A stretch of DNA of 64,000 nucleotides from Acidobacteriota bacterium (GTDB taxonomy: Bacteria; Acidobacteriota; Thermoanaerobaculia; Thermoanaerobaculales; Sulfomarinibacteraceae). The stretch is from contig JAHECW010000005.1 in the NCBI GenBank assembly GCA_024641545.1, forward strand, positions 6,067 to 70,066. Reading direction: 5' to 3'. Every line of letters begins with the position of its first letter. The first letter of the stretch is position 1. Below the pieces are notes generated by a model, which saw nothing but the letters and a program-made list of their open reading frames with translations, was not told the DNA's origin and searched no databases. Shown piece after piece: positions 1-16,969 of the stretch. Position numbers and translations under genes: made by a program.

Positions 1-439
1 CCACCCGGTGGTCGCGGTTGATCAGCGCGACAAAGCAGGGGACTTTCTCGAACAGCGCCTGGTACTCGCTCTGGAGCTGTCTCGCGGCGGTCAGATCGGT
101 GGTGATGGCCGCCACGAAGTTCGTCTCGTCCGCGTCGGCCGGGATCGGGGTCAGATTGACCAGATAGTGGACCTCGCGGCCGCGGGCATCGATCCCCGTC
201 TGTTCGAGGGTCCGCGGTCGGCCGTCGCGGAAAACCTCCAGGGCATGGCAGTCGTCGCAGGGTTCATCTCGGTCCTTCGTGATCGAGTAACACGTCCGGC
301 CGCGCGCCGCCCCGAAACAGGCCTCGAAGGCCCGGTTGTGATCAACCACGTTCAACGCCGGGTCGATGACCATCACCCCCGACGGAATCTCGTCGATGAG
401 CCGACCGAGCATCTCGTTTCGCCAGGTTGCCGCGTGCAT
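1..439 (-). CDS. PAS-domain sensor protein, N-terminal part (gene continues beyond the left window edge)
   Basis: Absent from the ORF track because no stop lies in the window. Reverse-complement reading from ATG 439-437 gives MHAATWRNEMLGRLIDEIPSGVMVIDPALNVVDHNRAFEACFGAARGRTCYSITKDRDEPCDDCHALEVFRDGRPRTLEQTGIDARGREVHYLVNLTPIPADADETNFVAAITTDLTAARQLQSEYQALFEKVPCFVALINRDHRV with no stop. PAS-like pattern; GGGAGGTG Shine-Dalgarno 5 nt upstream of the ATG; a second PAS-like repeat starts near the edge. Confidence 0.6.
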   Translation of the reverse strand, partial: MHAATWRNEMLGRLIDEIPSGVMVIDPALNVVDHNRAFEACFGAARGRTCYSITKDRDEPCDDCHALEVFRDGRPRTLEQTGIDARGREVHYLVNLTPIPADADETNFVAAITTDLTAARQLQSEYQALFEKVPCFVALINRDHRV

Positions 440-536
440 CACGACACCTCCCGGCCCCCGCCCGACCGCGTCGCACCATGCGTACGGTCAACCCATCGAG
501 CGGCTGCCCGTCGCGGCCCGGCTGACGCGCCGGCAG

Positions 537-2591
537 TCATTGGAAAAACCCTTCGGCGACAACCACGGGCCGCCCGCCGATCCCATCATCGGGCACGACC
601 TCGATCTCGGATTCGACCCCTCGGTGGCAGAAGCCACAACGGGTCATCACCGGTTCCTCGATCGCTTTCTTGGATTCGTGGGCGCAGTGGCACTCGACAC
701 AGAGCTGGTGCATGGCGAGGCGATATCCGGGAGCGATCCCGGCGATTTCGCTCCGGTCCGCTCTCTCTTCCGGGTCGCTCGCAGCGGACACACCATGGCA
801 CCCGGAACAGGCGATGTCGCCGACGGCGGCGTCGGTCGAGCACTGATGACGGCCCTCGGCGAACGCCTGCGAAATCTCGGCTCGGTGGCACTCGACGCAG
901 GGAGTCGCCGAAGCGCGGTTCTTGACGGCTTCGGTCGCCGGGTGGCAGCGTCCGCAGGAGGCATTGTTGCCGAGCGCGGTGATGTGGTCGTCGTGGATGA
1001 AGGTGTCGGTGCAACGGTACATGTCGGCGTGGCAGGTCGCACACGGCGTGCCCCGCTCAAAGCGGAGGTTGCGATGGTGACAGAGGTTGCACGAGGCCTC
1101 GCCACCGAGCCGGTCGCGGTGGGCGGTGTGGTCGAAGAGCACCGCCCGGCCCGCGCGGTCGCCGTCGATGAGCAGCGCGGTCGTGAATCCCTCGGGGAAC
1201 TGAGCGGGAGCGATCTCGTTGCCGAGGAAGAGCAGGCTCGCCGGCATCGACTCGTCCACCACGAGCCGCACCGCGGCCACCGTCCGAGCCGAACGAGTCG
1301 GCACCGCAGGGGGGTACTTACCACCGGTGGTCGTGGTCTCGAGCACGACCATGCCGACCACGATCCCGATCACCCACCCCGCCGCCGCCAGGTGGGCGCG
1401 GCCGAACCACACCCCACCGAAGTAGTTGTGGGTCAAAGGGTCGGAGATCGGCGGGGTGAAGTGATCGGGATTCGCCGGCGCCTCCTCCCAGACCGGGAAA
1501 CGCTCGACGAAGAAGAGAAAGATCAGGGCCATTCCGGAGACCAATCCGACGCTGACCAGGATCTCGGTCAGGGCCGGAAGGTAGGTTTCCCCGCCGGCCG
1601 CCAGGTGAACGATGCCGCCCACGTCCGCCCGATGGAGGACGAACCCGGCGACGCCGGTGAACGCGCCGACCACGACGGGCCAGTGTTTGTCGGACAGCGA
1701 CGGGAGGTTGAAAAGCACCAACGGAATCACCACCGACATCGCGAGCTCGAGGGCAAAGAGCACCGAGTACCACGATGGCTGTACCAGCAGGTGGAGCTGG
1801 TGGCGAAGACCGAGATCGGTCAGTCTCACCGCGAGATAGAGCAGCAGCACCACCGATGCCGCCCGGACCAGACCGCGGAGCACCGGCCATTCCCCGTGGC
1901 GGTGGTAGAGCCAGGCGGTGGTGCTGCTCTCCACCGCGACCATCATCAAACCGAGCCCGATGGCCGAGACAAAAAAGAGCAGCGGCAGGATGGGTGAATA
2001 CCAAAGCGGGTGGAGACGGTCCTTGGCGAGGAGAAAGAGCGTGCCCAGGGAACTCTGATGGAGGGTGGAAAGGCCGATACCGGCAATCACGAGCACCAGG
2101 CTGACGCGACGCATGACCCGCAGCGCCCGCTCCCACTTCAGACCTTCGAAGAGCACGGGAACGAACTCGAGGGCAAGAACCGTGAGGTAGAGCATGACGC
2201 ACCAGCCGACCTCGAAGAGCGGCGAGTCGGGTTGCCAGAAGACGATCATGCGCCAGATGTTCCACGGCCGGCCGAGGTCGACGAGGAGGCCGAGGGCGAC
2301 GGCGAGATAGCCGAGAAAGGCGGTCAACACCGCGGGCCGGACGAGGCCGTGATAACGGTCGAGGTGGAAGATGTGCACCGTTGCGGCGATCACGAACCCG
2401 CCGGCGGCCAGCGCCACTCCCGAGAGCACGTCGAACCCGATCCACAGACCCCACGGCGTCCCATCCGTGAGCGCCGTGGTGGCGCCGAGGCCGCGCAGGT
2501 AGCGCGCAACGGCCACCGCGGCGGCGATGCCGATCAAGAACCAGAGGACGGCCTTGGTCACGATGAGGCGGGTGTTGTTGGCTTCGTTCAC
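537..2591 (-). CDS. NrfD/PsrC/DsrP-like polytopic membrane subunit fused to a C-terminal heptahaem c-type cytochrome domain
   Basis: GTG start overlapping the upstream stop (GTGA). The first ~430 aa have about 10-11 hydrophobic helices in an NrfD-family pattern. The last ~250 aa are soluble and carry seven CxxCH motifs (CNLCH, CATCH, CGRCH, CVECH, CSGCH, CVECH, CGFCH). Confidence 0.85.
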   Translation of the reverse strand: MNEANNTRLIVTKAVLWFLIGIAAAVAVARYLRGLGATTALTDGTPWGLWIGFDVLSGVALAAGGFVIAATVHIFHLDRYHGLVRPAVLTAFLGYLAVALGLLVDLGRPWNIWRMIVFWQPDSPLFEVGWCVMLYLTVLALEFVPVLFEGLKWERALRVMRRVSLVLVIAGIGLSTLHQSSLGTLFLLAKDRLHPLWYSPILPLLFFVSAIGLGLMMVAVESSTTAWLYHRHGEWPVLRGLVRAASVVLLLYLAVRLTDLGLRHQLHLLVQPSWYSVLFALELAMSVVIPLVLFNLPSLSDKHWPVVVGAFTGVAGFVLHRADVGGIVHLAAGGETYLPALTEILVSVGLVSGMALIFLFFVERFPVWEEAPANPDHFTPPISDPLTHNYFGGVWFGRAHLAAAGWVIGIVVGMVVLETTTTGGKYPPAVPTRSARTVAAVRLVVDESMPASLLFLGNEIAPAQFPEGFTTALLIDGDRAGRAVLFDHTAHRDRLGGEASCNLCHHRNLRFERGTPCATCHADMYRCTDTFIHDDHITALGNNASCGRCHPATEAVKNRASATPCVECHRAEISQAFAEGRHQCSTDAAVGDIACSGCHGVSAASDPEERADRSEIAGIAPGYRLAMHQLCVECHCAHESKKAIEEPVMTRCGFCHRGVESEIEVVPDDGIGGRPVVVAEGFFQ

Positions 2592-3400
2592 GACTCCTCC
2601 TCGTTCCGTTGGACTTCGTCGCCCGGGTCGGCGGTGGCGGCGGTCGGGCCTTCGGCGGCTGCAACCTGGCGCCGCCGTTCGAGCGTCCAGTGGACGCCGT
2701 ACATGAGGCCGGCGACGCCGAAGAAGGTGTAGGGAACGGTGTGCAGGACCTTGCGGGCGAGCTCCGGACGCGATCCGGTGCCGAGATCATCGGGCCAGCG
2801 TGCGTCGGTGAGATCGACGTCCGAGATGGTCAACACCGAGGTGCCGCCGACCTCGTGCTCGCCCCAGATGTGGTCGATGTAGCGCTGTGGCGCCGCGGCG
2901 ATCCTCGAGCGTGCTTCGGCGAGCAGCGCCTCGCGATCGCCGAAGATCGTGGCCTCGGTTGGACAGGCTGCGGTGCAGGCCGGCTGTGAGAGCTCACCCG
3001 CCTTGATCTTGTCGTAACAGAGAATGCACTTGCGCACCCTCGGCGTCGCCGACTCCCACTCGTAGCGTGTCATTGCAAAAGGACAGGCCACCATGCAGTA
3101 GCGACAACCCATGCAGATCACCGGGTTGTAGGCCACCGCGCCGGCTTCGGTCCTGCTCAACGCACCCACCGGGCACGCGGCTGCGCAGGCAGGATCGAGA
3201 CAGTGGCGGCAGTGGAGACGAACGTTCCGGTTACCGGTTTCAACGAGCGTTGTCCACCGGGTGGATGACAGATCGTTGACCCCGCCCTGCCAGCGGTAGG
3301 GCGCATCCGATCCGGTGTCGTTTGTCCGCCGGCACGCGGAGACGCATTCCTCGCAGCCGATGCAGCGGGTCACGTCGGTGAGAATCGCCATGGTCGTCAT
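2588..3400 (-). CDS. 4x[4Fe-4S] ferredoxin-type electron-transfer subunit (NrfC/DmsB/PsrB/DsrO/HmcB-like)
   Basis: Cys clusters CIGCEECVSAC, CRHCLDPACAAACP, CMGCRYCMVACP and CILCYD...CTAACP. ATG overlaps the upstream stop (ATGA). No N-terminal Tat/Sec-like signal is visible. C-terminal hydrophobic helix TVPYTFFGVAGLMYGVHW. Confidence 0.85.
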   Translation of the reverse strand: MTTMAILTDVTRCIGCEECVSACRRTNDTGSDAPYRWQGGVNDLSSTRWTTLVETGNRNVRLHCRHCLDPACAAACPVGALSRTEAGAVAYNPVICMGCRYCMVACPFAMTRYEWESATPRVRKCILCYDKIKAGELSQPACTAACPTEATIFGDREALLAEARSRIAAAPQRYIDHIWGEHEVGGTSVLTISDVDLTDARWPDDLGTGSRPELARKVLHTVPYTFFGVAGLMYGVHWTLERRRQVAAAEGPTAATADPGDEVQRNEEES

Positions 3401-4098
3401 ACCGGCTCTCCCTCCTTGTTCAGGGCCTGCGCGACGTGGCGGCCGGTCTCAGCCGGGAAGTGCCATCCGAGTTGGAAGACCAGACGGGTGAACGGATAGA
3501 GGACACAGTGCGCGATCTTGGTGATCGGAACCAGCACCAATACCAGATCCCCGACAAGCACGTGCAGCAGCAGCATGGTCCGGGCGGCAAACGGGCTGAA
3601 GGCCGGATTCGCCGCCCACCAGCCGAAAAGAACGAGGGCAAACAGGATGACGAGCACGAGCACGTCCCCCGCCCGGGTGATGGCACGCGAACTCGCGGAC
3701 CCGAGCCGGCCCACGACCAGCGCGAGCAACGCCGCCAGGGAAACCAGGGTCACACCGTCGGCAACCGCCTCGGGAATGACCGGCCACCAGACCGGGAGAA
3801 TTCCGGGGAGCAACGCCGCATGCCCGGCCAGAAACAGCGGCACCACGAGCACGCCGACGTGGAAGAGCACCGACGCGGAGCTGTAGACCGGCCGCTTGTG
3901 CCACAAACGGCGGGGCACGAGCCAACCGGCAGTGGCGGCGACAATGTCGCCGAGCGGCAGCCGGCGATCGCCGGCGCGGTGCCACGCAACCGCGATCTGT
4001 CCGACCAGGGTGACGATTCTGTAGCCGAGCCCGAGAACGCACACCGTGAGAGCGATTCGAAAGAGCGGACCACGAGCAAACTCGATCCAGCCGTCCAT
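3397..4098 (-). CDS. NarI/DsrM/HmcE-like membrane cytochrome b subunit
   Basis: 233 aa with 5-6 hydrophobic helices. Conserved-looking intramembrane His residues (LFHVGVL, AGHAAL, LLLHVLVG, KIAHCVL) fit two haem b sites of the nitrate-reductase-gamma family. Sits immediately downstream of the CCG-domain gene. Confidence 0.7.
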   Translation of the reverse strand: MDGWIEFARGPLFRIALTVCVLGLGYRIVTLVGQIAVAWHRAGDRRLPLGDIVAATAGWLVPRRLWHKRPVYSSASVLFHVGVLVVPLFLAGHAALLPGILPVWWPVIPEAVADGVTLVSLAALLALVVGRLGSASSRAITRAGDVLVLVILFALVLFGWWAANPAFSPFAARTMLLLHVLVGDLVLVLVPITKIAHCVLYPFTRLVFQLGWHFPAETGRHVAQALNKEGEPV

Positions 4099-4105
4099 GA
4101 AGACC

Positions 4106-5500
4106 TCACACCTCTGACGCGGCGCCGACGGCCGCGTCGTCGATCTCGATCAGCATTTCCGCCGGCGGGACGATGGCCTTGATCAAGAGGTCGTGCAGGC
4201 CGACGACCCGGACCTGATCCAGCCCGTGGTCCTCGCAGACCTCGCGCAGCTGCTTCTTGCAGTTGGCGCACGGCGCCACGACGATCTCGGCGCCGGTGCG
4301 GCGGATCTGTTCCGCCTTCTTGGCGCCGCCCACCAGGGTTCTGAACTCGCGGATTTCGTCGATGGACACGGTGCCGCCACCGCCGCCGCAGCAGTAGTTT
4401 TCCCGACCCTTCGGGGTCATGTCGACATAGTCGGCGCAGATGTGGCGGAGGATCTCGCGCGGTTGGTCGATGATCCACCCCGTGCGGGCGATGTTGCACG
4501 GATCGTGGTACGTCGTGCGCTGGGAGACGACATCGGGCCGCAACTCGAGCCGGCCCTCCTTCCACGCCCGGTGGGTGTACTCCATGAAGTTCACCACCTC
4601 CGGGGCATCATCGGCGCCGCAGAAGGTCCGGATGAAGAACTTCGCGGACCGGGAGGCGTGGCCGCACTCCCCGATGAGGATCTTCCTCGCGCCCAGCCGG
4701 CGGACCTCCTCGGCCTCCATTGAGACGATCCGGTCGAGCATCCTGTCGGAGTAGAAAAGGCCGTAGTTGATGCCGTCGTACGCTCCCGTACCGATGGTCC
4801 ACGAACCGCCGGTGGCACTCATGACCGCCGCGTTGCCGATGAGGGTGTCGGGTTCGAGCAGATAGTCGCTCACCGCCGGGAAGAAGACATACTCGGTGCC
4901 TTCCCGGTCGATCGGGAACTCGATCTTGAGCCCGACCTCGTCGGCGCAGTCTTCTTCGAGGAACTCGCAGGTGTCGAGGAGGGCCGCCTTGGGGATCGCC
5001 GAGGTGTTGCGGGTGGTCCCGTCGAGTTGCTCCCGCGTCGCGACCACAAGAGCTTTGGGGACGATCCCCACTTCGGCGAGAGACCAACGGGCGAGGTGGG
5101 TGAGGAGCCCGTGGTCGATGCCCATGGGACACTCGAGGTTGCACCGCCGACAGGCCGTGCAGCGGTAGAACTCTTCCGCCATGGTGTTGATGTAGGCCTC
5201 ATCGATCTCGAACGATCGCCCGAACCGCGCCCCCAGGTTTCCGAACGGGGTGAAATACCGGCGATAGACCTTGAGCAGAAGCTCGGACCGGCGGCACGGG
5301 ATGTCGCGGTCCTCTCCCGATGTCTCGTAGACGGGGCAACTGGTGCTGCAGCGGCCGCACCGCGTGGTCACCCGGCAGGCGGTATCGAGCACCATCGCGT
5401 AGTTCGAGTGCGAGAGGATGGCCGCGAGGCCTTCAAGGTACCGCCTCGGCAGATCGCTGGTGTCAACGGGCTCGAGATAGTAGGAACATTCAATGGCCAT
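4106..5500 (-). CDS. DsrK/HdrD/HmcF-like Fe-S protein with CCG (cysteine-rich) domain
   Basis: Two ferredoxin motifs (CGRCSTSCP, CTACRRCNLECP). CCG-domain signature YHDPCNIAR ... NYCCGGGGG ... CANCK. Start trimmed from the track value 5713 to the ATG at 5500 (MAIECSYY...), because a -24/-12 promoter lies at 5545-5562 inside the longer ORF and a GAAGGGA RBS-like stretch precedes 5500. Confidence 0.85.
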   Translation of the reverse strand: MAIECSYYLEPVDTSDLPRRYLEGLAAILSHSNYAMVLDTACRVTTRCGRCSTSCPVYETSGEDRDIPCRRSELLLKVYRRYFTPFGNLGARFGRSFEIDEAYINTMAEEFYRCTACRRCNLECPMGIDHGLLTHLARWSLAEVGIVPKALVVATREQLDGTTRNTSAIPKAALLDTCEFLEEDCADEVGLKIEFPIDREGTEYVFFPAVSDYLLEPDTLIGNAAVMSATGGSWTIGTGAYDGINYGLFYSDRMLDRIVSMEAEEVRRLGARKILIGECGHASRSAKFFIRTFCGADDAPEVVNFMEYTHRAWKEGRLELRPDVVSQRTTYHDPCNIARTGWIIDQPREILRHICADYVDMTPKGRENYCCGGGGGTVSIDEIREFRTLVGGAKKAEQIRRTGAEIVVAPCANCKKQLREVCEDHGLDQVRVVGLHDLLIKAIVPPAEMLIEIDDAAVGAASEV

Positions 5501-5544
5501 GGGAATCCCTTCGGCGCAGCGGGCTGTCGTACCACCCATCGGTA

Positions 5545-5562
5545 GAGCATTTGTTGTGCCAA
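5545..5562 (-). promoter_or_regulatory. Sigma-54 (-24/-12) promoter of the DsrK-like/cytochrome operon
   Basis: The minus strand reads TTGGCACAACAAATGCTC. This is TGGCAC-N5-aTGC with correct GG-N10-GC spacing and one mismatch to TGGCAC-N5-TTGC. It lies ~35 nt upstream of the ATG at 5500 and faces away from a sigma-54 activator gene 145 bp away. Confidence 0.6.
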
Positions 5563-5590
5563 ACCCGAGAATTTTCATGAAACCATTTGT

Positions 5591-5603
5591 TATCAATAAT
5601 TTA
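5591..5603. promoter_or_regulatory. IHF-like bending site between the sigma-54 promoter and the divergent activator gene
   Basis: TATCAATAATTTA fits WATCAANNNNTTR. It lies in the only strongly AT-rich patch of the 5563-5706 intergenic region, ~30-40 bp upstream of the -24 element. Confidence 0.25.
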
Positions 5604-5706
5604 TTAGTGAGTCTGAGAGAAATTTCCGCTTTCGTAATGTCGCGAAATTGGAACTGATGTCTCGAAGGTATTGTAAATATGGAACACTCGATGGATAATC
5701 GGCAAC

Positions 5707-7044
5707 ATGACACACAGGATCGATCCCCGCTATGGCAGCCTGATCTTCGACAACATTCCGCACGGGATCTTCACCGTCGACGCCGAACGGCGAATCACCT
5801 CCTTCAACCGCGCCGCCGAGGAAATCACGGGCTGGTCCCAGGAGGAGGCTCTCGGTCGTCCGTGCACGTCGATCTTCAACTCCAACCACTGCGCCGGCCG
5901 CTGCTTCCTCTTCAACAGCATCGAGCGCGGCGAGCCCCACCGCGACTGCGAGGTCCACATCATCAAGCGAAACGGCACCGAGATCTCGGTCGCGGTGAGC
6001 ACCGCGAGCCTGACGAGTGATGACGGCGAGGTCATCGGCGGGATCGAAATGTTCCGCGACCTCACCGAGGTCAATACCCTCCGGCGGGAACTCGAGGGGT
6101 CCTACCAGATCGGCGATATCGTCTCCAAGAGCGCCGCCATGAAGGGTGTCCGCGATCTCCTTCCGCTCGTTGCCCGCAGCGACAGCACCGTGCTCATCGA
6201 AGGCGAGCCCGGCACCGGCAAAGAACTGGTTGCACGAGCAATCCACAACATGGGTCCCAGGCGGGAGGGCCCGTTTGTCGGGGTCAACTGCGGCGCCCTG
6301 CCGGAATCGCTCGTCGAGTCCGAGCTCTTCGGCCACGTCCGCGGCGCTTTCACCGACGCAAAAAGGGACAAGCCCGGCCGTTTCGCCGCCGCCCAGGGGG
6401 GAACCCTCCTCCTCGACGAGATCGGCGACATCTCGGCCGCGGTGCAGGTCAAACTCCTTCGGGTGCTCCAGGAACGCGAGTACGTGCCTCTCGGATCCTC
6501 GGAGCCCGTCAAGGCCGATGTCAGGATTCTCGCCGCCACCAACCGTGATCTGTCACACGAGGCGATGAACGGCCGCTTCCGCCAGGATCTCTATTTTCGC
6601 CTCAACGTGGTTCGGATCGTGCTGCCGCCGCTGCGTTCCCGGTGGGAGGACATCCCGCTCCTGGTGCAACACTTCATCGAGCGCTTCAACAACCTCCAGG
6701 GGCGCCGGATCTGCGGCATCTCCGAACGCGCCATGACAACCCTCGCGGGTCACTCCTTCCCGGGCAACGTACGCGAACTCGAAAACGCCATCGAACACGC
6801 TTTCGTGGTGTGCGCCGGCAACACCATACGCCGCGAAGATCTGCCGCCGCACATCCGCGGCGAGGCCGCCGTCCCGCCGGAGGCATCCCGGGAATCTGCC
6901 GGCGGTCCGCTCGACGCGGCCGAGGCCGCGGCCATTCGTGACGCTCTCAGGCGCTATTCCAACAACCGAACCGAGACCGCCCGGGGACTGGGCATCTCGC
7001 GGAATACGCTTTGGCGGAAGATGAAGAAATACCGGATACCATGA
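5707..7044 (+). CDS. Sigma-54-dependent transcriptional activator (PAS - AAA+ - Fis-type HTH; no receiver domain)
   Basis: N-terminal PAS (IPHGIFTVDAERRITSFNRAAEEITGW). Walker A GEPGTGKE, GAFTDA loop, LLLDEIGD, PGNVRELEN. C-terminal HTH ETARGLGISRNTLWRKMKKY. Confidence 0.9.
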   Translation: MTHRIDPRYGSLIFDNIPHGIFTVDAERRITSFNRAAEEITGWSQEEALGRPCTSIFNSNHCAGRCFLFNSIERGEPHRDCEVHIIKRNGTEISVAVSTASLTSDDGEVIGGIEMFRDLTEVNTLRRELEGSYQIGDIVSKSAAMKGVRDLLPLVARSDSTVLIEGEPGTGKELVARAIHNMGPRREGPFVGVNCGALPESLVESELFGHVRGAFTDAKRDKPGRFAAAQGGTLLLDEIGDISAAVQVKLLRVLQEREYVPLGSSEPVKADVRILAATNRDLSHEAMNGRFRQDLYFRLNVVRIVLPPLRSRWEDIPLLVQHFIERFNNLQGRRICGISERAMTTLAGHSFPGNVRELENAIEHAFVVCAGNTIRREDLPPHIRGEAAVPPEASRESAGGPLDAAEAAAIRDALRRYSNNRTETARGLGISRNTLWRKMKKYRIP

Positions 7045-7177: not shown

Positions 7178-8782
7178 CTAGTGCCATTCCCAATCGATAA
7201 ATCCCGGCTTGACGTCGACCATGGCGTTGACGATGAGCTCCACCAGACCGCCGTAGTAGATCCCGGCCTTCTCGAATGCATCGTAGTAGGTGATGATGTC
7301 GCGGATCTGGCCCTTGCAGTTGGAGCACGGCGCGCAGACGTACTTCATGTGCGACGGATCCATGGACTCGTCCTGGAAGGCATTGAGGATCTGGCGGAAT
7401 TTCCGCCGCCCGGTCATCCGATGGCGCCAATCCTTGAAATTGTGGCCCGACATGATGGCGAAGCCCGAACCGCCGCCGCAGCAGTAGTTCTCGACCCCGT
7501 GCGGCGCCATTTCGCGGAAGCGGCCCTCGGGCACCACCGCGTCGATGATCTCGCGCTGCGGCGAGACGATGCCCATGAGGCGCACCAGGTTGCACGGATC
7601 ATGCAGGGTCACCGGGAAGTCGTTGCGGCTCTTGTCGAGCTTGAGCACACCCGATCGGATGATATCGCGCAGGGTCACCATGGAGCTCTCGCGCGGGATG
7701 TTGAGGTCGCCGGTGAGCACCTTGTCGGCGATGACCGTGAGGGCTTTGTGGGCGTGGCCGCACTCACCGAGGACGATCTTTCTGACTCCGAGTTTCTTGG
7801 CGATGGCGGCGTGCCGCACCGCGACCCGCGCGAACTGGACGTCGTCGTACCAGACCCCGTAGTTGATCCCGTCGTAGCCGATGGCATCGGACGACAGGGT
7901 CCAGCTGAGGCCGGCCGCTTCGAAGACCGTGGCGAAGGCGCCGGGGTTCTCGGGCCAGGCCATGATCTCACCGGCATTGTGGATGAGGAGGATGTCGGCG
8001 CCGACCTTGTCGAACGGCGTCTCGATGGTGATGCCGGTGCGCTCCGCGGTGTCTTCGTCGATGAACTCGATGTTGTCCTTGACGATCATCGGGGTCATAC
8101 CGGTGGATGAACCGACCCTGAGCTGAAGCACGGACCCGTCGTCGTGGATCTCCTTGGGAACGATCCCCATCTCCATGCTCGCGATCTTCCGGATCTCGCG
8201 CGACAGCAGCGCGTTGTCGGCGCCGATGGGACAGGTCTGGGCGCAGCGGCGGCAGAGGTTGCAGCGGTAGCTCAACTCGATGAGCCGGGCCACCGTCTCC
8301 CAGTTGAGATCGATGTCGCCGTGCAGCGAAGGCGAGGCCTTCTTGACGTACTTGAAGTAGATCCGGCGCAGGATTTCGGAACGATAGACGGGTCGGTAGA
8401 GTTCGTTCTCACCGCTTTCCTGGAAGATCGGGCAGGCGTCGGAGCAGGTGTGGCACTTGGCGCAGTGCTCCATCGACATCTCGAAGGGCTGGAGGAACGT
8501 CCAGTTGTCGTCGACGCTGAAGAGCTTCTCGAGACCGCTGAGGAAGCCGTTGACCAGCTTGTCTTCCTCTTCCTTGGTCTTCGGTTTCTCGATATTGACC
8601 GCGATGGTGTCGTCGAGAACGACGTACTTTTCGCGGGCGGCGTCGGAGAGCTGGGCGAACTCGGGCTCTTCGTCGATCTTGTCAAAGGGGGGCGGCAACG
8701 GGATCTGTTCGTACTGGTTGATCTGGGCGAGGGGTTCGCCCGGATTCTTCCCCATGTCCTTGACGCTGTTGGGCTGTTTCAT
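7178..8782 (-). CDS. Second DsrK/HdrD-like Fe-S protein with CCG domain
   Basis: CAKCHTCSDACP and CNLCRRCAQTCP ferredoxin motifs. LHDPCNLVR ... NYCCGGGSG ... CAPCSNCK CCG signature. ATG overlaps the upstream stop (ATGA). Confidence 0.85.
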   Translation of the reverse strand: MKQPNSVKDMGKNPGEPLAQINQYEQIPLPPPFDKIDEEPEFAQLSDAAREKYVVLDDTIAVNIEKPKTKEEEDKLVNGFLSGLEKLFSVDDNWTFLQPFEMSMEHCAKCHTCSDACPIFQESGENELYRPVYRSEILRRIYFKYVKKASPSLHGDIDLNWETVARLIELSYRCNLCRRCAQTCPIGADNALLSREIRKIASMEMGIVPKEIHDDGSVLQLRVGSSTGMTPMIVKDNIEFIDEDTAERTGITIETPFDKVGADILLIHNAGEIMAWPENPGAFATVFEAAGLSWTLSSDAIGYDGINYGVWYDDVQFARVAVRHAAIAKKLGVRKIVLGECGHAHKALTVIADKVLTGDLNIPRESSMVTLRDIIRSGVLKLDKSRNDFPVTLHDPCNLVRLMGIVSPQREIIDAVVPEGRFREMAPHGVENYCCGGGSGFAIMSGHNFKDWRHRMTGRRKFRQILNAFQDESMDPSHMKYVCAPCSNCKGQIRDIITYYDAFEKAGIYYGGLVELIVNAMVDVKPGFIDWEWH

Positions 8783-9714
8783 TTGGTCTGGTCCTCCAAG
8801 GTCACGTCAAGCCAGCTTTTCTTACCGTCGGCTCCGATGTGCGGCGCCGACCAGGTCACCGGCCTCGAGAGGAGTTCCTGGATGGTCCCCTCCTGCCGGC
8901 CGCCGGCCAGGTTCGGCTCATCCGACCAGCGGATGGAGTGGTAGGCGAAGTACTTGCCGATGAAATGCGACATATGGGTCGTCGGGATGTAAGCGGTGAG
9001 CAGCGCGAGCAGCACCACCGACAGAGTCAACAGCAGGCCGGCCGGCCCGGCTCCGACCGGTGCGAGGTCGAAGGTCACCAGATTGGTGATGAAGGTGGTG
9101 ACCATGGAGAAATCTCGGTCGTAGACGACAAGAGACACCAACGAGACTCCGAAGGCGGCGATGAAGAAGACGAGGTTGAACAGATCGGCCGGCGCCGTGT
9201 AGTCGCGGAGGGCGCGGCTGCGGCGGCGCATGAAGAGCCCGATGGCGCCGATGATCCCCAAAACCAGCCCTGCCCCACCGAGGAATGGAGCCACGAGGTT
9301 GACGATCTTGGCCACGGGTGCCGCAATGTTCTCCGGAAGATAGCCGACAACCAACCCGCCGGCGAGCATGAGCGCGGTCACGCCGCCCACCAGGTAGAGT
9401 CCGAAGTGAAACGGAAAGGAGCGGGTCCAGAGCTTCTTGTTGTGCTCTCTCAGCGCAACCAGAAAGAGGATCTCCGGCACCATGACCTTGAGCTCGCCGA
9501 AGAGCGAGACCTCGCGTTTCTTGGTCCACCACTCGGTGTCTTCGAGATAGGACCCACCGTACGCGGCCTTTCCACCGCCCTCGTGCGCGACGGGATAGAG
9601 TTCCCACCGCACGTGCATCGGCATCTTCGACCACATCATGAATCGGGCGATGCACGCGATGAGAAAGAAGACGAGGCCGAGGTAGGCGACCACGTACGCG
9701 AAAGTAGTCATCAT
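8779..9714 (-). CDS. Second NarI/DsrM/HmeC-like membrane cytochrome b subunit
   Basis: Polytopic membrane protein with the typical N-terminal stretch MPMHVRWELYPVAHEGGGKAAYGGSYLED...FPFHFGLY. The track start at 9720 is GTG; the ATG at 9714 or 9711 follows a GAGGTG RBS, so the start is uncertain by a few codons. Confidence 0.75.
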   Translation of the reverse strand: MMTTFAYVVAYLGLVFFLIACIARFMMWSKMPMHVRWELYPVAHEGGGKAAYGGSYLEDTEWWTKKREVSLFGELKVMVPEILFLVALREHNKKLWTRSFPFHFGLYLVGGVTALMLAGGLVVGYLPENIAAPVAKIVNLVAPFLGGAGLVLGIIGAIGLFMRRRSRALRDYTAPADLFNLVFFIAAFGVSLVSLVVYDRDFSMVTTFITNLVTFDLAPVGAGPAGLLLTLSVVLLALLTAYIPTTHMSHFIGKYFAYHSIRWSDEPNLAGGRQEGTIQELLSRPVTWSAPHIGADGKKSWLDVTLEDQTK

Positions 9715-10240
9715 TATCACCTCATGGTTATTTTACAGTATTGTGTTACGTCATGCGATAACAGCTTCAACGCGCTCATTCTACTGAAGACGACCGCTGA
9801 TTCTCAAGATTTCGCTCAGCAACGGTTGACCTTCGGATGGGCCCGCGCGCCACTCCACCGATGAACCACTGCCGACGGGACCACATCTCCCGCGATTCGA
9901 GCAATTGCCATTCCTGAGTGAAACGCTCAGCATTGACTCCACCACCGGAGAAGATCGCTCAATCCGTCGCAAGATCAAGTGTTTCGCGATCAAGAAGCTC
10001 CGCGCCGAATCGACTTGTGGTGCAGGTCCGGATCACCGCTGTCGACATGTCGCAATCCTGGAACACCCTCACCCTCCGTTACGGCGAGGTGACACCGGCA
10101 CGTGTATTTGTGCTCAGTTTTGAGATTGAAGCTCGCTGCTGCCGACTTCGAAACCACCCACGAAGGCGCCGGCAGTGTCCGCAGTCTTCGACTCCTGATC
10201 GCGCACAGGCAAGTGGTTTCTTTCACCGCGAGAAGTGCCG

Positions 10241-11739: not shown

Positions 11740-12138
11740 TCAGGGCTTCGCTTCGCCCGGTCCGACGAGCTCACCGACCTTGCGCATGAGATCTTCGGGC
11801 GAGATCGGCTTTTCGAGGTAGTGGTCCGCCGGGACCCACGACTCGTCGACCTCCAGTCGCAGGTTGTAGACGCGATCGACTCCGGTGAGGATGATGATCG
11901 GGATGAGCGCGGTCGCGTCGTTGTTCCGAAGGGAACGGGCGACATCGAACCCCTCGGACATGTGGTCCATCATGACGTCGAGAACAATCAAATCCGGCGG
12001 ATCGTCGTCAACGACCGCCAAGGCTTCGGTGCCGTTGGCAACGGTCCGCACGTGATACCGCGTCCCGAGCACCGCGGCCACCGATTGAACGAAAACCGGA
12101 TCGTCGTCCGCAACCAGCACCGTCGGTCGCGGCATCAT
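11740..12138 (-). CDS. Stand-alone receiver-domain response regulator (CheY-like)
   Basis: 132 aa. VLVADDDP ... DLIVLDVMMD ... ILTG ... YLEKP receiver pattern with no output domain. GGAGTGG RBS. 4-nt gap to the kinase gene. Confidence 0.85.
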   Translation of the reverse strand: MMPRPTVLVADDDPVFVQSVAAVLGTRYHVRTVANGTEALAVVDDDPPDLIVLDVMMDHMSEGFDVARSLRNNDATALIPIIILTGVDRVYNLRLEVDESWVPADHYLEKPISPEDLMRKVGELVGPGEAKP

Positions 12139-12260
12139 CCACTCCGAACCGCGGAGGTTCCGGCCCGGGACCGGCGGCGTCTGTCCATCAACGCGTTCAT
12201 GTCAACAACTCGACAATACCCGAGACCCACTCGATGCAACAAGCGCTGCCGAACTTCATC

Positions 12261-13895
12261 TCATCCGCAGGAGCCGGTGGGACAACCCCGACCGGAGAGG
12301 TGGGCTTCATATTCTTTCCGGAAATTGCCCAGGCCGGTGATGACGGAACCGGTGGCATTGCGACCGAGTTCGCACAGGGACGTCTGTCGAATGTGCCGGC
12401 AGAGCCGTTCCAGACGCTTCAGGTCGGACGCCTCTGCCTGACCCGAACCGATGCGATCGAGGAGATTGAGGACCACCCTGGTCCCGATCCGGCAGGGCGG
12501 ACACGTCCCGCACGACTCTTCGGCGCAGAAGGCAACAAAATAGCGAGCGAGAGCCACCGGACAGCTGCCCGGGCCGAGCACCACGACGCTCCCCGAACCG
12601 AGATTGGCCTCGTGGTTGCGGAGCGACCCGAAATCAACGGTGGTGTCGAACTGGGAGCGAGACAGGGTCACACCACCGGGACCCCCGAGGTGGGCTCCCA
12701 GAACCCCGTCGTCGGCGCCCGCGCCGGCGATCTCCTCAACGATCCTGGCAAGGCTCGTCCCGATCGGCACCTCGGCCACCCCGGGTCTGGGGACGGCGCC
12801 CGACACGCTGACCACCTTGGTGCCGGACGGACGGACATCGGCGCCGAGCCGCTCGGGCAGCACGATCAACGGGATGTTGGCCAGCGTCTCGAGACCGTTG
12901 ATCAAGGTCGGGCAACCCCACAGGCCGCTGACCGCCGGGAACGGCGGACGGGGCCTGGCGACCGCGCGACGCCCCTGGAGCGCGTTGAGCAACGAGGTTT
13001 CCTCGCCACCCATGGACGCCCCGGCGTTCTCGCAGATCTCGATCGAGAAATCGAACCCCGAACCGAGAATCCTCGAACCGAGAAAACCCCGATTCCGAGC
13101 CTGCTCTACGGCCCGCTCGGCGCGGGCGACGGCCAGGCGGTGCTCCGATCGGAGAAACAGCCGACCCTCCCTGGCGCCCACCGCATAGCCCGCGATGGCC
13201 ATCCCTTCGACAACACTGTGCGGGTCTCCTTCGACGAGGGTGCGATCCGCGGTCGGTCCCGGGTCGCCCCCTTCGCCGTTGCCGACGACATATCGGATCT
13301 GTCCCGGCGTGTCGGCGACCAGCGCCCACTTCAACCCGACGGGGAACCCCGCCCCGCTCCGTTCCTGGAGACCGGATCGCTTGACCAGATCGATGATCTT
13401 CACCGGATCGAGATCGAGGAGCGATCGCCGCAGCGCATCATAGGCACCGAGCGTAACCGCGTGTTCCACATCCTCGGGATCGACGACGCCGCACCGGGCC
13501 AGCACCTGACGATCCTGGTTCGCGAAGAACGGATTGTCCGCCAGTCCCCGGTATCGCTGACCGCTCGCGGGTTCGAGATACAGCAATCGGTCGATGACCT
13601 CGGATCGACCGACCGTGCGATCGAGGATCTCGTCCACATCCTCCTGCCTGACCCGACAGTAGAGCACGTCCAGTCCTGGAAGGTGGACCAGCGGACCCTG
13701 ACTGCAGAACCCACGGCACCCGACCACGCACGGCTTCGACTCGATCGTGACCTTTGATCCGGAGCCGGCCGCGCCCCCTTGCAGCGCTTCAATCACCTCG
13801 AGGGCACCGAGGGCGATGCAGCCGCTGCCGCCGCAGACACGAATCGCCACCGGAGTCCGGTCCGGAGCCTGCGAGGCGGTCGTCGGCGCCGTCAA
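12261..13895 (-). CDS. NuoF/HoxF/HndC-like NADH-binding FMN/Fe-S subunit with N-terminal thioredoxin-like [2Fe-2S] domain
   Basis: RVCGGSGC...CRGFCSQGP (2Fe-2S), GAGFPVGLKW (NADH site), GGEETSLLNAL (FMN site), ESCGTCPPCRIG (N3 cluster). Start trimmed from 14015 to the TTG at 13895. That TTG overlaps the NuoE-like stop (TTGA) and follows GGAGGA at a 6-nt spacing. A GTG at 13850 is an alternative. Confidence 0.85.
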   Translation of the reverse strand: MTAPTTASQAPDRTPVAIRVCGGSGCIALGALEVIEALQGGAAGSGSKVTIESKPCVVGCRGFCSQGPLVHLPGLDVLYCRVRQEDVDEILDRTVGRSEVIDRLLYLEPASGQRYRGLADNPFFANQDRQVLARCGVVDPEDVEHAVTLGAYDALRRSLLDLDPVKIIDLVKRSGLQERSGAGFPVGLKWALVADTPGQIRYVVGNGEGGDPGPTADRTLVEGDPHSVVEGMAIAGYAVGAREGRLFLRSEHRLAVARAERAVEQARNRGFLGSRILGSGFDFSIEICENAGASMGGEETSLLNALQGRRAVARPRPPFPAVSGLWGCPTLINGLETLANIPLIVLPERLGADVRPSGTKVVSVSGAVPRPGVAEVPIGTSLARIVEEIAGAGADDGVLGAHLGGPGGVTLSRSQFDTTVDFGSLRNHEANLGSGSVVVLGPGSCPVALARYFVAFCAEESCGTCPPCRIGTRVVLNLLDRIGSGQAEASDLKRLERLCRHIRQTSLCELGRNATGSVITGLGNFRKEYEAHLSGRGCPTGSCG

Positions 13896-14449
13896 CGCCG
13901 GTCCTCCGGCCGACGATCGGGGCCGAGGAGCTCGGTCACGAGATCGCCGGCGGCGGCTTCTGTCTCCACGCCGCGAACCCGGTCCTCGATCCGAATCACC
14001 GGCGCGAGGCCGCACACGGCGAGACAGCGCTCCTGGCGCACGGCGAGGGTCGGCTCGCCGGCGATCGGCGGCCGTTCAGCCACCGCTCGGTTGATCCGGC
14101 GCAGCACCCCTTCCCCTCCACACAGGAAACAGCCGGGTCCGGTGCAGACATCGACGATGAGCCGGCCGCGCCGCTCGGAACTGAGTTGCGGGTAGTAGCT
14201 CACAACCCCGGCAACCTGGGCGGGTGAGAGGCCGAACCGGTCCGCCACCAACTCCTGCACTCTCCACGAGACCCTGTCAAAGACCTGCTGGAGACCCAAG
14301 AGCACTCGAATCAGCCCCTCCCGTCCGCCGGGCGCCTGCGCCAGCAACTCGTCGACCAACTCGATCACCGCCGGATCGAGGGCCTCCGCACCATCGCCGC
14401 CTTCGGTGCCGAAGAAACCGGAGTCGGTGATGTCGTCGGTAATGCTCAT
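13892..14449 (-). CDS. NuoE-like thioredoxin-fold [2Fe-2S] subunit
   Basis: VVSYYPQL...VDVCTGPGCFLCGG...CLAVCGLAPV signature. The ATG at 14449 (MSITDD...) lies 2 nt after the upstream stop; the track start at 14476 is a GTG inside the upstream gene. Confidence 0.8.
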   Translation of the reverse strand: MSITDDITDSGFFGTEGGDGAEALDPAVIELVDELLAQAPGGREGLIRVLLGLQQVFDRVSWRVQELVADRFGLSPAQVAGVVSYYPQLSSERRGRLIVDVCTGPGCFLCGGEGVLRRINRAVAERPPIAGEPTLAVRQERCLAVCGLAPVIRIEDRVRGVETEAAAGDLVTELLGPDRRPEDRR

Positions 14450-14451
14450 CG

Positions 14452-16962
14452 TCAGGCCTTTCTCACCTTGACCCACAGGACCTCGCCGCCCTCTTCAAAG
14501 AGGGTCGAAGCTCCATAGCGGCTTCCAACCCAGGGGACGATTACGGTTCCCTGGAGAACCGTTCGATCGAGCCGGGCACGCAGCAGAACCTCTCCCTTGT
14601 CGCTCGACACCGCGACGACTTCACCGCGAGCCACGCCGAGGGCGCGCGCATCGGCCGGGTTGATCCGAACCGCCACCGTCGGCGACAGTTCCTGGAGCAG
14701 CGCGCTGCGCATGGTGACCGAGCCCGAGTGAAAGAGCTGCGGCGCGGCATCGAGCAGAAAACCCGATGCGCCGGCCGCCGCGCGGGGTGGTGAAACCGGA
14801 GTCAGCCGCCGGGGCTGAGATCGTCGCCACCTCCATCCCACCACCCGATCCAGCTCGCGGAAGAGGGCTTCGCCCGTCGGGAGCGACGAGCCCATCCGGC
14901 GTGCGAGTTCGACCAGGATCACCGTATCCGACCTGACTCCGGCAGGGGGACCGAGCGCTCGCCGCAACGGCCGTCGAATACCGTCGGCGCCCACCGTCGT
15001 TCCTTCGCGTTCGCTGAGAATGGCCGCCGGAAGGACCACGTCCGCTCGTTCGGCGGTGCTCGTTCGAAACGCATCGACGACAACCGAGAAACCCGCACCC
15101 TCCACGACCCGCCGAGGATCTTCGCCGCGCGGAAGCAGGTCGATGGGATCAACGCCGACGAGAAGGAGACCCGATGCGGCGTCGGGACCGGCCTTGACCC
15201 AGTCCGAGACCGACCAACCCGCCTCCGAGATGGTCGCGCGCCCGGTGAGATCCTCGAGCTCGACCGCCTGGTTGATGAGCCGATGGCCGGGCAGGAGACG
15301 CGGGTGGAGGCCGACATCGACCAGCCCCTGGACATTGGACCGACCGCCCAGAACGAGCAAACCCGCATCGCTTCCGCACAACGCCGTCAGTGTCGCGGCC
15401 ACCCGCGCCACCGCCGCCTCGTTCCCGGGCACACCGGAGCCGGTCCCCATGATCATCACCGGCCGGCGTGCGGCCGCCAACCGGGAGGCCAGACCGTCAA
15501 TCCGCTCAGCCGTGAGCCCGGTCGCCCGGGCGACCGATTCCGGCGAGAACGCCTCGATGGATCGACGCCAGGCGTCATACCCCGGCAGGTGTTCGATCCT
15601 CCTCGAACGAGGGCCATCGAGAGCCAACAACCGGACCGCCACGGCAACCAGGAGATCGCTGACCGACCCGGGGGCCGGCCGAAGCACATCGGCCGCGTGC
15701 CGATCGAGGCCGCCCGCAACCGGGCTTACCGCGATCACCGGCACCCCCCGTTGGACCGCCGCCTGCACCAGTTCGGTCTTGACCAGCGGGTGACCCCGAC
15801 TCGGATCACTCCCGAAGACCAGTACGAGATCCGCCAGCCTGATCTCGTCAAAACCCGCAGTCGAACGCGGTCGGTCGAAGACCTCCCAGACCCCGTCCAC
15901 CAGCGCCGGCGCTCCGCCGACCGGCGCCATGTCGACGTGCGGACTCTTGAGCACCTCGCGGGCCAGCGCCTGCAGGAGGTAGCCGTCCTCACAGCTCAGC
16001 CGGCCGCCCCCGGCCACCATCACCGGGCCGCGTCCCGCGGCACGTCGAAGGCCGTCCGCCGCCGACGCCAGGCCTTCCTCCCAGCTCACCTCGACCAGCG
16101 TTCCGTCCTTGCGGACCAACGGCGCTCTCAGGCGTTCGGGGTTCGCCACGACATCGAGACCGAGCCACCCCTTGACGCAGAGCTTGCCGCGATTGGGTGA
16201 ACCACCGACCGCTGAGGTCACGCGTTGGAGCCGGCCTTGGTGGTTCTCCACCGACACCTCGCAACCGCAGCAACAGAAGGAGCAGGTGGTCTTGACCCGC
16301 GCTCGTTGCCAGACCGGGATCGGCGACGCGTACGGCTGCGCCACCAGGGCCCCCACCGGACACGCATTGACGCACTGGCCGCAGAACTCGCAGTCCAGCG
16401 GCCGGTCGAGAAAGGTCGCAACGTGGGTTCCCATACCCCGCCCCAGAAAAGCCAGGGCCGCGACCCCCTGAACCTCCTCACACAGGCGGACGCAGCGACC
16501 GCAGACAATGCACTTCCCAGGGTCGCGAATGATCACCGGGGAGGCTTCGTCTCGCGACGCCGGTTTGAAGTCGAACGGCAGAATGTCGTCCGGGATCCCG
16601 ATCTCGTGGACCAGATCCTGGAGGCGGCAGTCCGCGTTGCGTTCGCAGACCGGGCACTCCATTCGATGATTGAGCACGAGCAACTGGAGTTGCTGTTGCC
16701 GGGCTTCGACCACCGCCGGGCTGTCGGTCAGGATGACCATCCCGTCCTGGATCCGCGTCGAGCACGCCGGGACCAGGGCCCCCGAGGCGTCCGCCCGCTC
16801 GACCACACACATCCTGCAGCCGCCGTACGGCGTCAAACGATCATCGTGGCACAGGGTCGGCAGCCGGATTCCGAGTTCCGAGAGCACGTGGATGAGCAAC
16901 CGGTGCCTGGCCGTTCGCACCGGCCGCCCATCGACCGTGAGGGATACGGGTAGGGTTTCCAT
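14452..16962 (-). CDS. NuoG-like Fe-S / molybdopterin-oxidoreductase-fold subunit (apparently non-catalytic MopB domain)
   Basis: N-terminal 2Fe-2S (LCHDDRLTPYGGCRMCVVE). CPVCERNADCRLQD and CIVCGRCVRLCEE...CEFCGQCVNACP clusters. MopB cluster CSFCCCGC...LCVKG. The region aligned to the formate-dehydrogenase active site reads LKSPHVDMAPVGGAP, with no Cys or in-frame TGA. Confidence 0.8.
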   Translation of the reverse strand: METLPVSLTVDGRPVRTARHRLLIHVLSELGIRLPTLCHDDRLTPYGGCRMCVVERADASGALVPACSTRIQDGMVILTDSPAVVEARQQQLQLLVLNHRMECPVCERNADCRLQDLVHEIGIPDDILPFDFKPASRDEASPVIIRDPGKCIVCGRCVRLCEEVQGVAALAFLGRGMGTHVATFLDRPLDCEFCGQCVNACPVGALVAQPYASPIPVWQRARVKTTCSFCCCGCEVSVENHQGRLQRVTSAVGGSPNRGKLCVKGWLGLDVVANPERLRAPLVRKDGTLVEVSWEEGLASAADGLRRAAGRGPVMVAGGGRLSCEDGYLLQALAREVLKSPHVDMAPVGGAPALVDGVWEVFDRPRSTAGFDEIRLADLVLVFGSDPSRGHPLVKTELVQAAVQRGVPVIAVSPVAGGLDRHAADVLRPAPGSVSDLLVAVAVRLLALDGPRSRRIEHLPGYDAWRRSIEAFSPESVARATGLTAERIDGLASRLAAARRPVMIMGTGSGVPGNEAAVARVAATLTALCGSDAGLLVLGGRSNVQGLVDVGLHPRLLPGHRLINQAVELEDLTGRATISEAGWSVSDWVKAGPDAASGLLLVGVDPIDLLPRGEDPRRVVEGAGFSVVVDAFRTSTAERADVVLPAAILSEREGTTVGADGIRRPLRRALGPPAGVRSDTVILVELARRMGSSLPTGEALFRELDRVVGWRWRRSQPRRLTPVSPPRAAAGASGFLLDAAPQLFHSGSVTMRSALLQELSPTVAVRINPADARALGVARGEVVAVSSDKGEVLLRARLDRTVLQGTVIVPWVGSRYGASTLFEEGGEVLWVKVRKA

Positions 16963-16969
16963 CCCGCCC

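Follow-up and report, generated by a model that had tools for sequence, protein, structure and literature searches.

In the NrfD-containing respiratory complexes covered by reviews and tables, the cytochrome is always a subunit of its own (PMC8076601). The Nhc complex, for example, consists of a c3-class cytochrome with NrfC-like and NrfD-like proteins and has no cytoplasmic module (PMC8076601). HybB, DsrP and NhcC are predicted to be ten-helix proteins of the ActC type (PMC8076601), and in ten-helix NrfD-like subunits such as ActC both termini lie on the cytoplasmic (N) side (PMC8076601, Calisto and Pereira). We analysed a stretch of 64,000 nucleotides (nt) from an Acidobacteriota bacterium (GenBank assembly GCA_024641545.1, contig JAHECW010000005.1, positions 6,067 to 70,066; hereafter the window), in which the open reading frame (ORF) at 537–2591 on the minus strand joins an NrfD-type membrane part to a multihaem cytochrome c domain. 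The initial annotation of this ORF had noted that the two parts are separate polypeptides in known complexes, in agreement with Table 1 of PMC8076601, and had read the gene as a DsrP-DsrJ-type fusion. Here we describe the architecture of the fusion, its conservation and predicted topology, its quinone and proton residues and the composition of its operon. We consider it probable that this single polypeptide combines a HmcC/HybB-type quinone module, an eleventh transmembrane helix and a periplasmic HmcA/c3-class domain within an Hmc-like quinone:cytochrome complex of four polypeptides.

One reading frame for a membrane domain and a multihaem cytochrome

The ORF encodes 684 amino acids (a.a.) from a GTG start codon, which is preceded by GGAGGAG and overlaps the stop codon of the upstream gene by 4 nt (a GTGA arrangement). 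The calculated mass is 74.2 kDa for the apoprotein and about 78.5 kDa with seven haems. Both domains score above their Pfam cut-offs: NrfD (PF03916) at residues 43–321 with 71.6 bits (cut-off, 25.8) and Cytochrom_CIII (PF02085) at residues 482–569 with 35.7 bits (cut-off, 22.9). The ORF coordinates of the initial annotation were exact, and all seven of its CxxCH motifs were located (residues 501, 517, 546, 565, 595, 631 and 652), with the refinement that six of them are invariant across the family. When the C-terminal 264 residues were shuffled 20,000 times, the mean number of CxxCH motifs was 0.06 and the maximum was three, versus seven in the real sequence. Fourteen of the 17 cysteines in this region lie inside CxxCH motifs, and the 420-residue membrane part has a single cysteine.

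The initial annotation had proposed searching databases for the same architecture and had raised the worry that the frame was joined by the assembly. Of the 120 clusters that matched best among 5.8 billion clustered proteins, 119 carried the same NrfD and cytochrome parts, with 49–86% identity and lengths of 567–691 a.a. (nearly all 630–691). A genome scan with one genome per species, whose query (alignment A3, seven closer C-terminal sequences) was biased to Acidobacteriota-like members and missed low-GC relatives, returned 63 loci, every one of them in a metagenome-assembled genome (MAG). The hosts are Acidobacteriota, including Thermoanaerobaculia, Planctomycetota/Phycisphaerae, Latescibacterota, Sumerlaeota, Myxococcales, Thermodesulfobacteriota and bins labelled Fibrobacteraceae; the closest locus (L004), in an Acidobacteriota MAG, is 71% identical over the C-terminal part. 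A single ORF holds both parts in 56 of the 64 examined loci, and the other eight comprise three that are cut by contig ends, one core-deleted form and four interrupted genes with the parts adjacent on the same strand. The architecture recurs in more than 100 independent assemblies, which answers the worry about an assembly join: the in-frame fusion is real.

The haem domain alone was searched against 1.84 billion representative sequences, yielding 288 matches at E ≤ 0.001. The full-length matches are fusions, and the shorter ones are N-terminally truncated fragments or forms with three to five helices; in all informative matches, the haem domain is C-terminal to membrane helices. Among the 288, there is no convincing soluble, stand-alone haem domain, and none has a signal peptide. 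Short matches that might pass for stand-alone cytochromes were rejected as such and treated as fragments, because they begin in mid-linker without a signal peptide. The protein P0120, which is the remaining one of the 120 best clusters and was called as a 414-residue NrfD-only protein, was likewise rejected as a naturally split version. Its gene call is due to a single in-frame TGA inside helix 11, within a colinear 683-residue frame with seven CxxCH motifs (locus L068, 2445–4500), and this TGA reflects either one nonsense change or an error of sequencing.

Among the NCBIfam models, HmcC (294 bits) and HybB (285 bits) rank highest for the membrane part, with QrcD far lower. Both fall below their equivalog cut-offs; that of HmcC (NF045714) is 550 bits, so the protein is not an orthologue by the NCBI criterion. 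An AlphaFold2 model, a prediction built on 37 family members, places ten membrane helices at residues 7–33, 48–75, 78–105, 124–151, 154–188, 202–228, 235–262, 274–295, 304–327 and 341–364, mostly with predicted local distance difference test (pLDDT) values of 80–95. This agrees with the NrfD plan, in which two four-helix bundles make up an eight-helix core flanked by the peripheral helices A and B. The initial annotation had counted about ten NrfD helices plus one extra hydrophobic helix placed where an anchor would be needed, and the model agrees: an eleventh helix containing AAAGWVIGIVVGMVVL (residues 396–420, pLDDT about 90) stands between the NrfD and haem domains. It appears in a hydropathy scan as a peak of 2.18 at residues 399–417, alongside ten strong peaks and a weak ninth helix, and it is present in all 37 aligned members and kept in the core-deleted relatives. 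Three predicted beta strands (437–443, 452–460 and 469–476) lie in a small beta domain at residues 437–486. The best Foldseek matches of the membrane part are ActC structures (6btm_C, 8k9e_C and 6lod_C; TM-scores of 0.64–0.66), followed by ActF and PsrC.

The mean count of lysine plus arginine (K+R) is 14.0 in the predicted inner loops of the fusion versus 6.0 in the outer loops. Because an eleventh helix is added to a ten-helix NrfD unit with cytoplasmic termini, the haem domain is predicted to be periplasmic, as judged from the positive-inside rule, the ActC-like fold and the ten-helix NrfD rule. The predicted topology and the charge bias thus agree with the earlier expectation that an odd number of helices, starting from a cytoplasmic N-terminus, would put the haem domain outside. 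E. coli HybB, which is 32% identical to the membrane part, was aligned to the family, and 25 HybB residues of the quinone site and proton path (PMC8076601, Table 2) were compared. Twenty-one of these are identical or conservatively replaced, mostly invariant in the 37 sequences; the exceptions are S105, T63 and S95 (G, V and A, respectively) and Y77, which is Y or H in the family and H in the window protein. Among the conserved residues are D54 and Y95, which correspond to the essential HybB residues D58 and Y99; mutation of the latter abolishes menaquinone reduction or proton uptake (Lubek et al. 2019, as cited in PMC13059093). With its quinone and proton residues kept, the membrane part is likely to be a working quinone module.

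In the C-terminal part, residues 483–570 align along the whole length of the tetrahaem basic cytochrome c3 2bq4. The best matches of the C-terminal profile are structures of the 16-haem HmcA (1z1n, E = 1.3e-14, then 2e84, 1h29 and 1gws), with c3, a Geobacter c7-type polymer, ActA and NhcA ranking lower, and the last dihaem lobe matches the c7-like domain at the N-terminus of HmcA (1h29 residues 42–112 and 2e84 residues 71–146). Six CxxCH motifs and six non-motif histidines (H488, H491, H506, H533, H536 and H628) are invariant family-wide, which fits a family core of six haems with putative bis-His ligation; the window protein would carry seven. The fifth motif, at C595, sits in an insertion of ~30 residues that is confined to the closer subclade (in alignment A1, members of at least 59% identity plus P0055 and P0057; absent from the rest), and seven CxxCH motifs occur only in the window protein, L004 and the L068 clade. 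Within the insertion, alignment A1 has no conserved histidine as a distal ligand for the seventh haem. Judged by its profile matches and signature residues, the haem part is of the HmcA/c3 class, not DsrJ. As a separate observation, the fourth haem motif is CxxxxCH (e.g., ACDAPACH) in P0040, P0041, P0043, P0128 and P0136 and at loci L006, L008, L009 and L064; classical cytochromes c3 often have this variant too.

The operon and its iron–sulfur subunit

The fusion belongs to an operon with the order hmcF-hmcE-hmcB-hmcC::cytochrome, the last three genes of which overlap their neighbours by 4 nt (Table 1). The same arrangement is found in L001 (51% identity) and in 39 of the 64 loci, and an NrfC-type iron–sulfur (FeS) partner is encoded immediately upstream of the fusion wherever upstream sequence exists, except in the core-deleted L054. 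The HmcE-like protein has histidines 80, 93, 179 and 197 within its helices. The translation of the HmcF-like gene contains one CCG motif and a GECGH stretch, the combination that is the signature of DsrK/HmcF/TmcB (PMC10861901). Its longest ORF has 71 extra codons (5501–5713) ahead of the start of its 460-residue homologues (MAIECSYY...); the true start is probably M72 of this ORF, with the 71-codon extension untranslated.

Table 1 Features of the fusion protein and of the neighbouring genes in the window
Feature	Residues	Position (nt)	Strand	Basis
NrfD-type (HmcC/HybB-like) quinone-interacting membrane domain, helices A, 1–8 and B	1–364	1500..2591	−	Pfam, NCBIfam, AlphaFold2, Foldseek, HybB residues
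Loop between helices 10 and 11, acidic, conserved VWEExPxxPDHFTPP, predicted cytoplasmic	365–395	1407..1499	−	Alignment A1, loop charge counts
Eleventh transmembrane helix, anchor, predicted to run from the cytoplasmic to the periplasmic side	396–420	1332..1406	−	Hydropathy, AlphaFold2, alignment
Variable linker with small predicted beta domain, then conserved LLIDGxRxGR	421–480	1152..1331	−	AlphaFold2, alignment A1
Tetrahaem cytochrome c3-like lobe, CxxCH 501/517/546/565, invariant distal His 488/491/506/533/536	481–570	882..1151	−	Pfam Cytochrom_CIII, 2bq4 alignment, invariant columns
Subclade-specific insertion carrying the fifth CxxCH (C595)	571–617	741..881	−	Alignment A1
Last dihaem lobe, CxxCH 631 and 652, invariant H628, then stop codon	618–684	537..740	−	Invariant columns, HmcA alignment
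HmcB/HybA-like FeS protein, four [4Fe-4S] motifs, C-terminal tail anchor, no Tat signal		2588..3400	−	NCBIfam HmcB 224 bits, Cys motifs
HmcE/TmcC-like membrane cytochrome b (NarI/DsrM type)		3397..4098	−	NCBIfam HmcE 113.6 bits, TmcC 107 bits, both below cut-off
HmcF/DsrK-like cytoplasmic CCG iron–sulfur protein		4106..5500	−	Pfam CCG and Fer4_8; NCBIfam DsrK 272 bits, HmcF 197 bits, TmcB 182 bits, below cut-offs
PAS-sigma54 activator, divergent, conserved beside the operon		5707..7044	+	Pfam
PAS sensor kinase start, downstream of the fusion, runs off the window		2..442	−	Translation, likeness to the 600-a.a. PAS histidine kinase of L001

The FeS subunit begins MTTMAILTDVTRC, 12 residues before its first cluster motif, and the HmcB and HybA profiles align to it only from positions 36 and 38, respectively. 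The twin-arginine translocation (Tat) motif that E. coli HybA carries near its N-terminus (NRRNFIK) is missing. Every locus with a readable FeS start (the window, L001 and L004–L066) has such a short N-terminus without a Tat or Sec signal. The N-terminal extensions of the longest HmcB ORFs in GC-rich loci were rejected as signal peptides, being spurious frames that overlap the upstream gene. Around the helix of the tail anchor, K+R is 1.1 before versus 3.4 after (n = 53); the tail is predicted from its sequence to be cytoplasmic and the FeS domain to be periplasmic, on the same side as the haems. No conserved Tat-signal protein is encoded in either operon type (HmcF-containing or Planctomycetota-type). 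There is a precedent in a signal-less, tail-anchored FeS protein beside a HybB-like protein, for which export by hitchhiking on a Tat-exported [FeFe] hydrogenase, the product of an upstream gene, has been proposed (PMC10924467); the loci studied here show no carrier of this kind. The signal-less FeS partner poses a specific problem for studies of Tat-dependent assembly.

Several relatives depart from this layout. In L047 (5051–11272) and L052 (4955–11323), the two loci examined among those in which HmcF was not detected, a divergent HmcE-like cytochrome b without a Pfam match and an HmcB-like protein precede the fusion, which is followed by a cytochrome of 850–890 residues with 23 CxxCH motifs, and there is no HmcF. 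In L054 (1645–2715), a Thermodesulfobacteriota MAG, HmcF and HmcE are followed directly by a 352-residue protein in which helices A, B and 11 lead into the hexahaem domain; HmcB is missing and the eight-helix NrfD core is cleanly excised, leaving a Tmc-like layout. The other core-deleted relatives (P0158, P0197, P0211, P0216, P0230, P0246, P0254, P0255, P0257 and P0259) keep the hexahaem domain together with helix A and one or two further helices. Because L054 keeps HmcF, HmcE and the anchored hexahaem domain without HmcB, the haem domain appears to be functionally tied to the HmcEF module. These forms suggest an evolutionary series of relatives, including the full fusion with HmcEF, the fusion with the 23-haem cytochrome and the core-deleted, Tmc-like forms.

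The PAS-sigma54 activator is likewise found at this position in L001 and in most loci that have HmcF. The PAS domains of both flanking regulators carry conserved cysteine triads (C-x8-C-x3-C in the sigma54 activator and C-x10-C-x2-C in the kinase), suggesting redox or metal sensing; the L001 counterparts of the two regulators lie at 5482–6828 and 11986–13788. Adjoining the operon are a second DsrK-like CCG protein (7178–8782, minus strand; NCBIfam DsrK 330 bits, cut-off 400) and, paired with it, a NarI/DsrM-like membrane protein (8779–9720, minus strand). A further cluster at 12261–19204 (minus strand) comprises three genes, encoding a NuoF-like flavoprotein, a molybdopterin FdhA/NuoG-like protein with an N-terminal 2Fe-2S domain, and a 744-residue GltD/HdrA-like flavoprotein fused to a CCG domain. 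Three CCG proteins are thus encoded within a 19-kb part of the window.

Proposed electron route and competing explanations

We propose that the fusion and the upstream four-cluster FeS protein would form a quinone:cytochrome c oxidoreductase module of the NrfCD type that contains its own cytochrome. Electrons may run from the quinone site through the FeS clusters to the haems, as in NhcABC, HmcABC and the ActABC core of alternative complex III, and the fused cytochrome would take the place of a separate cytochrome subunit and of that subunit's own anchor or docking surface. In the window, the module is presumably co-transcribed with the HmcE-like dihaem b cytochrome and the HmcF/DsrK-like CCG protein, which would make a four-polypeptide equivalent of Hmc. 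Electrons could then pass among periplasmic haems or carriers, the menaquinone pool and a cytoplasmic acceptor of the disulfide or trisulfide type. The module is proposed by homology with the three complexes named above, whereas the electron path, its direction and the cytoplasmic substrate are inferred.

Several observations weigh against this proposal. All of the family members come from uncultured organisms and are known from sequence alone. The NCBIfam equivalog scores are all below cut-off, and none of the four proteins is orthologous to a characterised Hmc subunit. The operon has no separate cytochrome gene (HmcA), and no HmcD was seen in it, as the four genes overlap or abut and leave no room. 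HmcF was not detected in 25 of the 64 loci, mostly Planctomycetota and at least four of them cut by contig ends; coupling to HmcEF is not universal, and the electron direction may differ. The AlphaFold2 model of the haem domain has low confidence (pLDDT below 50), in keeping with its having been built without haems, and was not used for geometry. In addition, the periplasmic location of the FeS subunit, and hence the route from quinone through FeS clusters to haems, has no explained assembly path.

A serious, if rather unlikely, alternative is that the module works mainly outward, as a quinol:cytochrome c oxidoreductase (like alternative complex III or Cbc) that drains menaquinol to periplasmic or extracellular multihaem cytochromes, with the HmcE/HmcF-like proteins being accessory or part of another branch. 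In its favour, the universal core of the family is the HmcB-like protein and the fusion, often with an HmcE-like cytochrome b, and this core resembles alternative complex III in the structural match of its membrane part to ActC and the profile match of its haem domain to ActA. The Planctomycetota-type loci L047 and L052, with the 23-CxxCH cytochrome after the fusion and without HmcF, suggest that the same core can also supply large periplasmic or extracellular cytochromes. In the window and in the 39 loci of the same arrangement, however, translational coupling joins the module to a DsrK/HmcF-like CCG protein, a type known for inward electron delivery to cytoplasmic disulfides (PMC10861901), and the scanned ORFs of the window included no gene for a large multihaem cytochrome.

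A second alternative, which we regard as doubtful, starts from the signal-less FeS subunit. This protein may reach the periplasm by an undescribed route, for example on an unlinked carrier or by assembly via the fused cytochrome, or it may face the cytoplasm, with the fused haems rather than the FeS clusters serving the quinone site. The latter would be a new NrfD-type topology.

It is very improbable that the NrfD part is a mere large membrane anchor that has lost its quinone chemistry, with the cytochrome trading electrons directly with HmcE/HmcF. Core-deleted relatives (L054, P0158 and forms of 290–310 a.a.), in which the haem domain has three helices only and HmcB is missing, could be cited for it. 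However, the quinone-site and proton-path residues are invariant in the full-length family, which is not expected of a mere anchor, and full-length fusions always have their NrfC-type FeS partner encoded immediately upstream.

If anything even less probable is the DsrP-DsrJ reading of the initial annotation, under which the gene would belong to a DsrMKJOP-type complex of sulfite reduction or sulfur oxidation. The top model for the CCG protein is indeed DsrK (272 bits), the second DsrK/DsrM-like pair lies next door (7178–9720), and DsrP is likewise a ten-helix NrfD protein and DsrJ membrane anchored (PMC10861901). However, the FeS partner scores 224 bits with HmcB versus 88 bits with DsrO, the membrane part scores as HmcC/HybB and the neighbours are Hmc-like. 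At E ≤ 0.01, the membrane part matches neither a DsrP nor a DsrJ model of NCBIfam, although that library may lack a DsrP model. DsrJ is a triheme cytochrome with His/Cys ligation (PMC10861901), whereas the haem domain here is of class III with bis-His signatures and has HmcA as its nearest structural relative; neither dsrAB nor dsrC was seen among the scanned window ORFs. Taken together, the fusion, the anchor helix and the topology of the initial annotation are supported, and its DsrP-DsrJ label is not.

The least probable explanation, an assembly or frameshift artefact or a polypeptide cleaved after helix 11 into separate mature proteins, could draw on the in-frame TGA within helix 11 of L068 and on the fact that sequence alone leaves room for cleavage, but it is countered by a continuous ORF that recurs across several phyla in over 100 independent assemblies, by the otherwise colinear frame of L068 and by the fact that no conserved AxA-type cleavage site after helix 11 was seen on reading the alignment.

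Relation to known systems

Databases list members of this family as "Ni/Fe-hydrogenase subunit HybB-like", "NrfD/PsrC family molybdoenzyme membrane anchor subunit", "cytochrome c3 family protein" or "Polysulphide reductase". The name 'Ni/Fe-hydrogenase cytochrome b subunit' is misleading for the fusion family, and such misannotation may make metabolic reconstructions infer a hydrogenase or molybdoenzyme that is absent. No description of an NrfD::cytochrome c fusion was found in the searchable literature, which did not include the review by Duarte et al. 2021 (BBA 1862:148416), where an earlier mention is possible. We regard the fusion as a conserved, undescribed variant of Hmc-type respiratory complexes, known to date from uncultured Acidobacteriota, Planctomycetota and their relatives only. 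Soils, peat and sediments yield many uncultured carriers of the family from these and neighbouring phyla, groups in which anaerobic respiration is poorly understood. The fusion provides a clean marker for the Hmc/Nhc-type module, sets cytochrome and quinone subunit at a ratio of 1:1 and offers a compact structural target for the coupling of an NrfD quinone site to a haem chain.

The principle of fusing a membrane quinol domain to a multihaem cytochrome is not new, given cases of the CbcL type. In CbcL of Geobacter sulfurreducens, a quinol-oxidising membrane domain is fused to a periplasmic multihaem c domain; its membrane part is a dihaem cytochrome b of the HydC/FdnI type, not a cofactor-less protein of the NrfD family. 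E. coli HybA/HybB resembles the present pair in the sequence of HybB (32% identity and 21 of the 25 residues) and in having a HybA-like partner with a C-terminal tail anchor. The differences are that no hydrogenase is present here, that HybA has a Tat signal and that HybB has no cytochrome domain.

Alternative complex III is similar in that ActC is the best structural match of the membrane part and the haem profile also matches ActA, a membrane-anchored, c7-like multihaem protein that sits on the FeS subunit above the NrfD-like subunit. It differs in that ActA is encoded by a separate gene and has its own N-terminal helix, and in that the operon described here encodes no ActD, ActE or ActF and lacks the molybdopterin-like domain of ActB. 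DsrMKJOP shares the two-module logic, with an NrfCD-like part and a cytochrome c facing the periplasm and a cytochrome b and a CCG protein facing the cytoplasm, and the CCG protein of the window scores best with its DsrK. However, DsrJ is unrelated, DsrP and DsrO are not the best models here and no dsrAB was seen among the scanned ORFs of the window. The composition of NhcABCD matches the universal core of the fusion family, and that of TmcABCD (a c3-class cytochrome with HmcF-like and HmcE-like proteins) matches the layout of the core-deleted L054; in both, the cytochrome is a separate protein, either soluble or peripherally bound.

The closest resemblance is to Hmc (HmcABCDEF of Desulfovibrio), which likewise combines a class III cytochrome, a tail-anchored FeS protein with four clusters, a ten-helix NrfD protein, a NarI-like cytochrome b and a CCG protein. 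HmcC, HmcB and HmcE are the best NCBIfam models of the corresponding window proteins, and the haem profile matches HmcA structures best. The window cytochrome, in contrast, has six to seven haems versus 16 and is fused to the HmcC-like part via the extra helix. HmcD is missing, the genes run F-E-B-C rather than A-B-C-D-E-F, a Tat signal is absent from the FeS subunit, no score reaches its equivalog cut-off, and the hosts are Acidobacteriota and other phyla versus Desulfovibrio. Because the equivalog scores fall below the cut-offs and HmcA, HmcD and the Tat signal are missing, this is, strictly speaking, no Hmc complex, but it most likely works like one.

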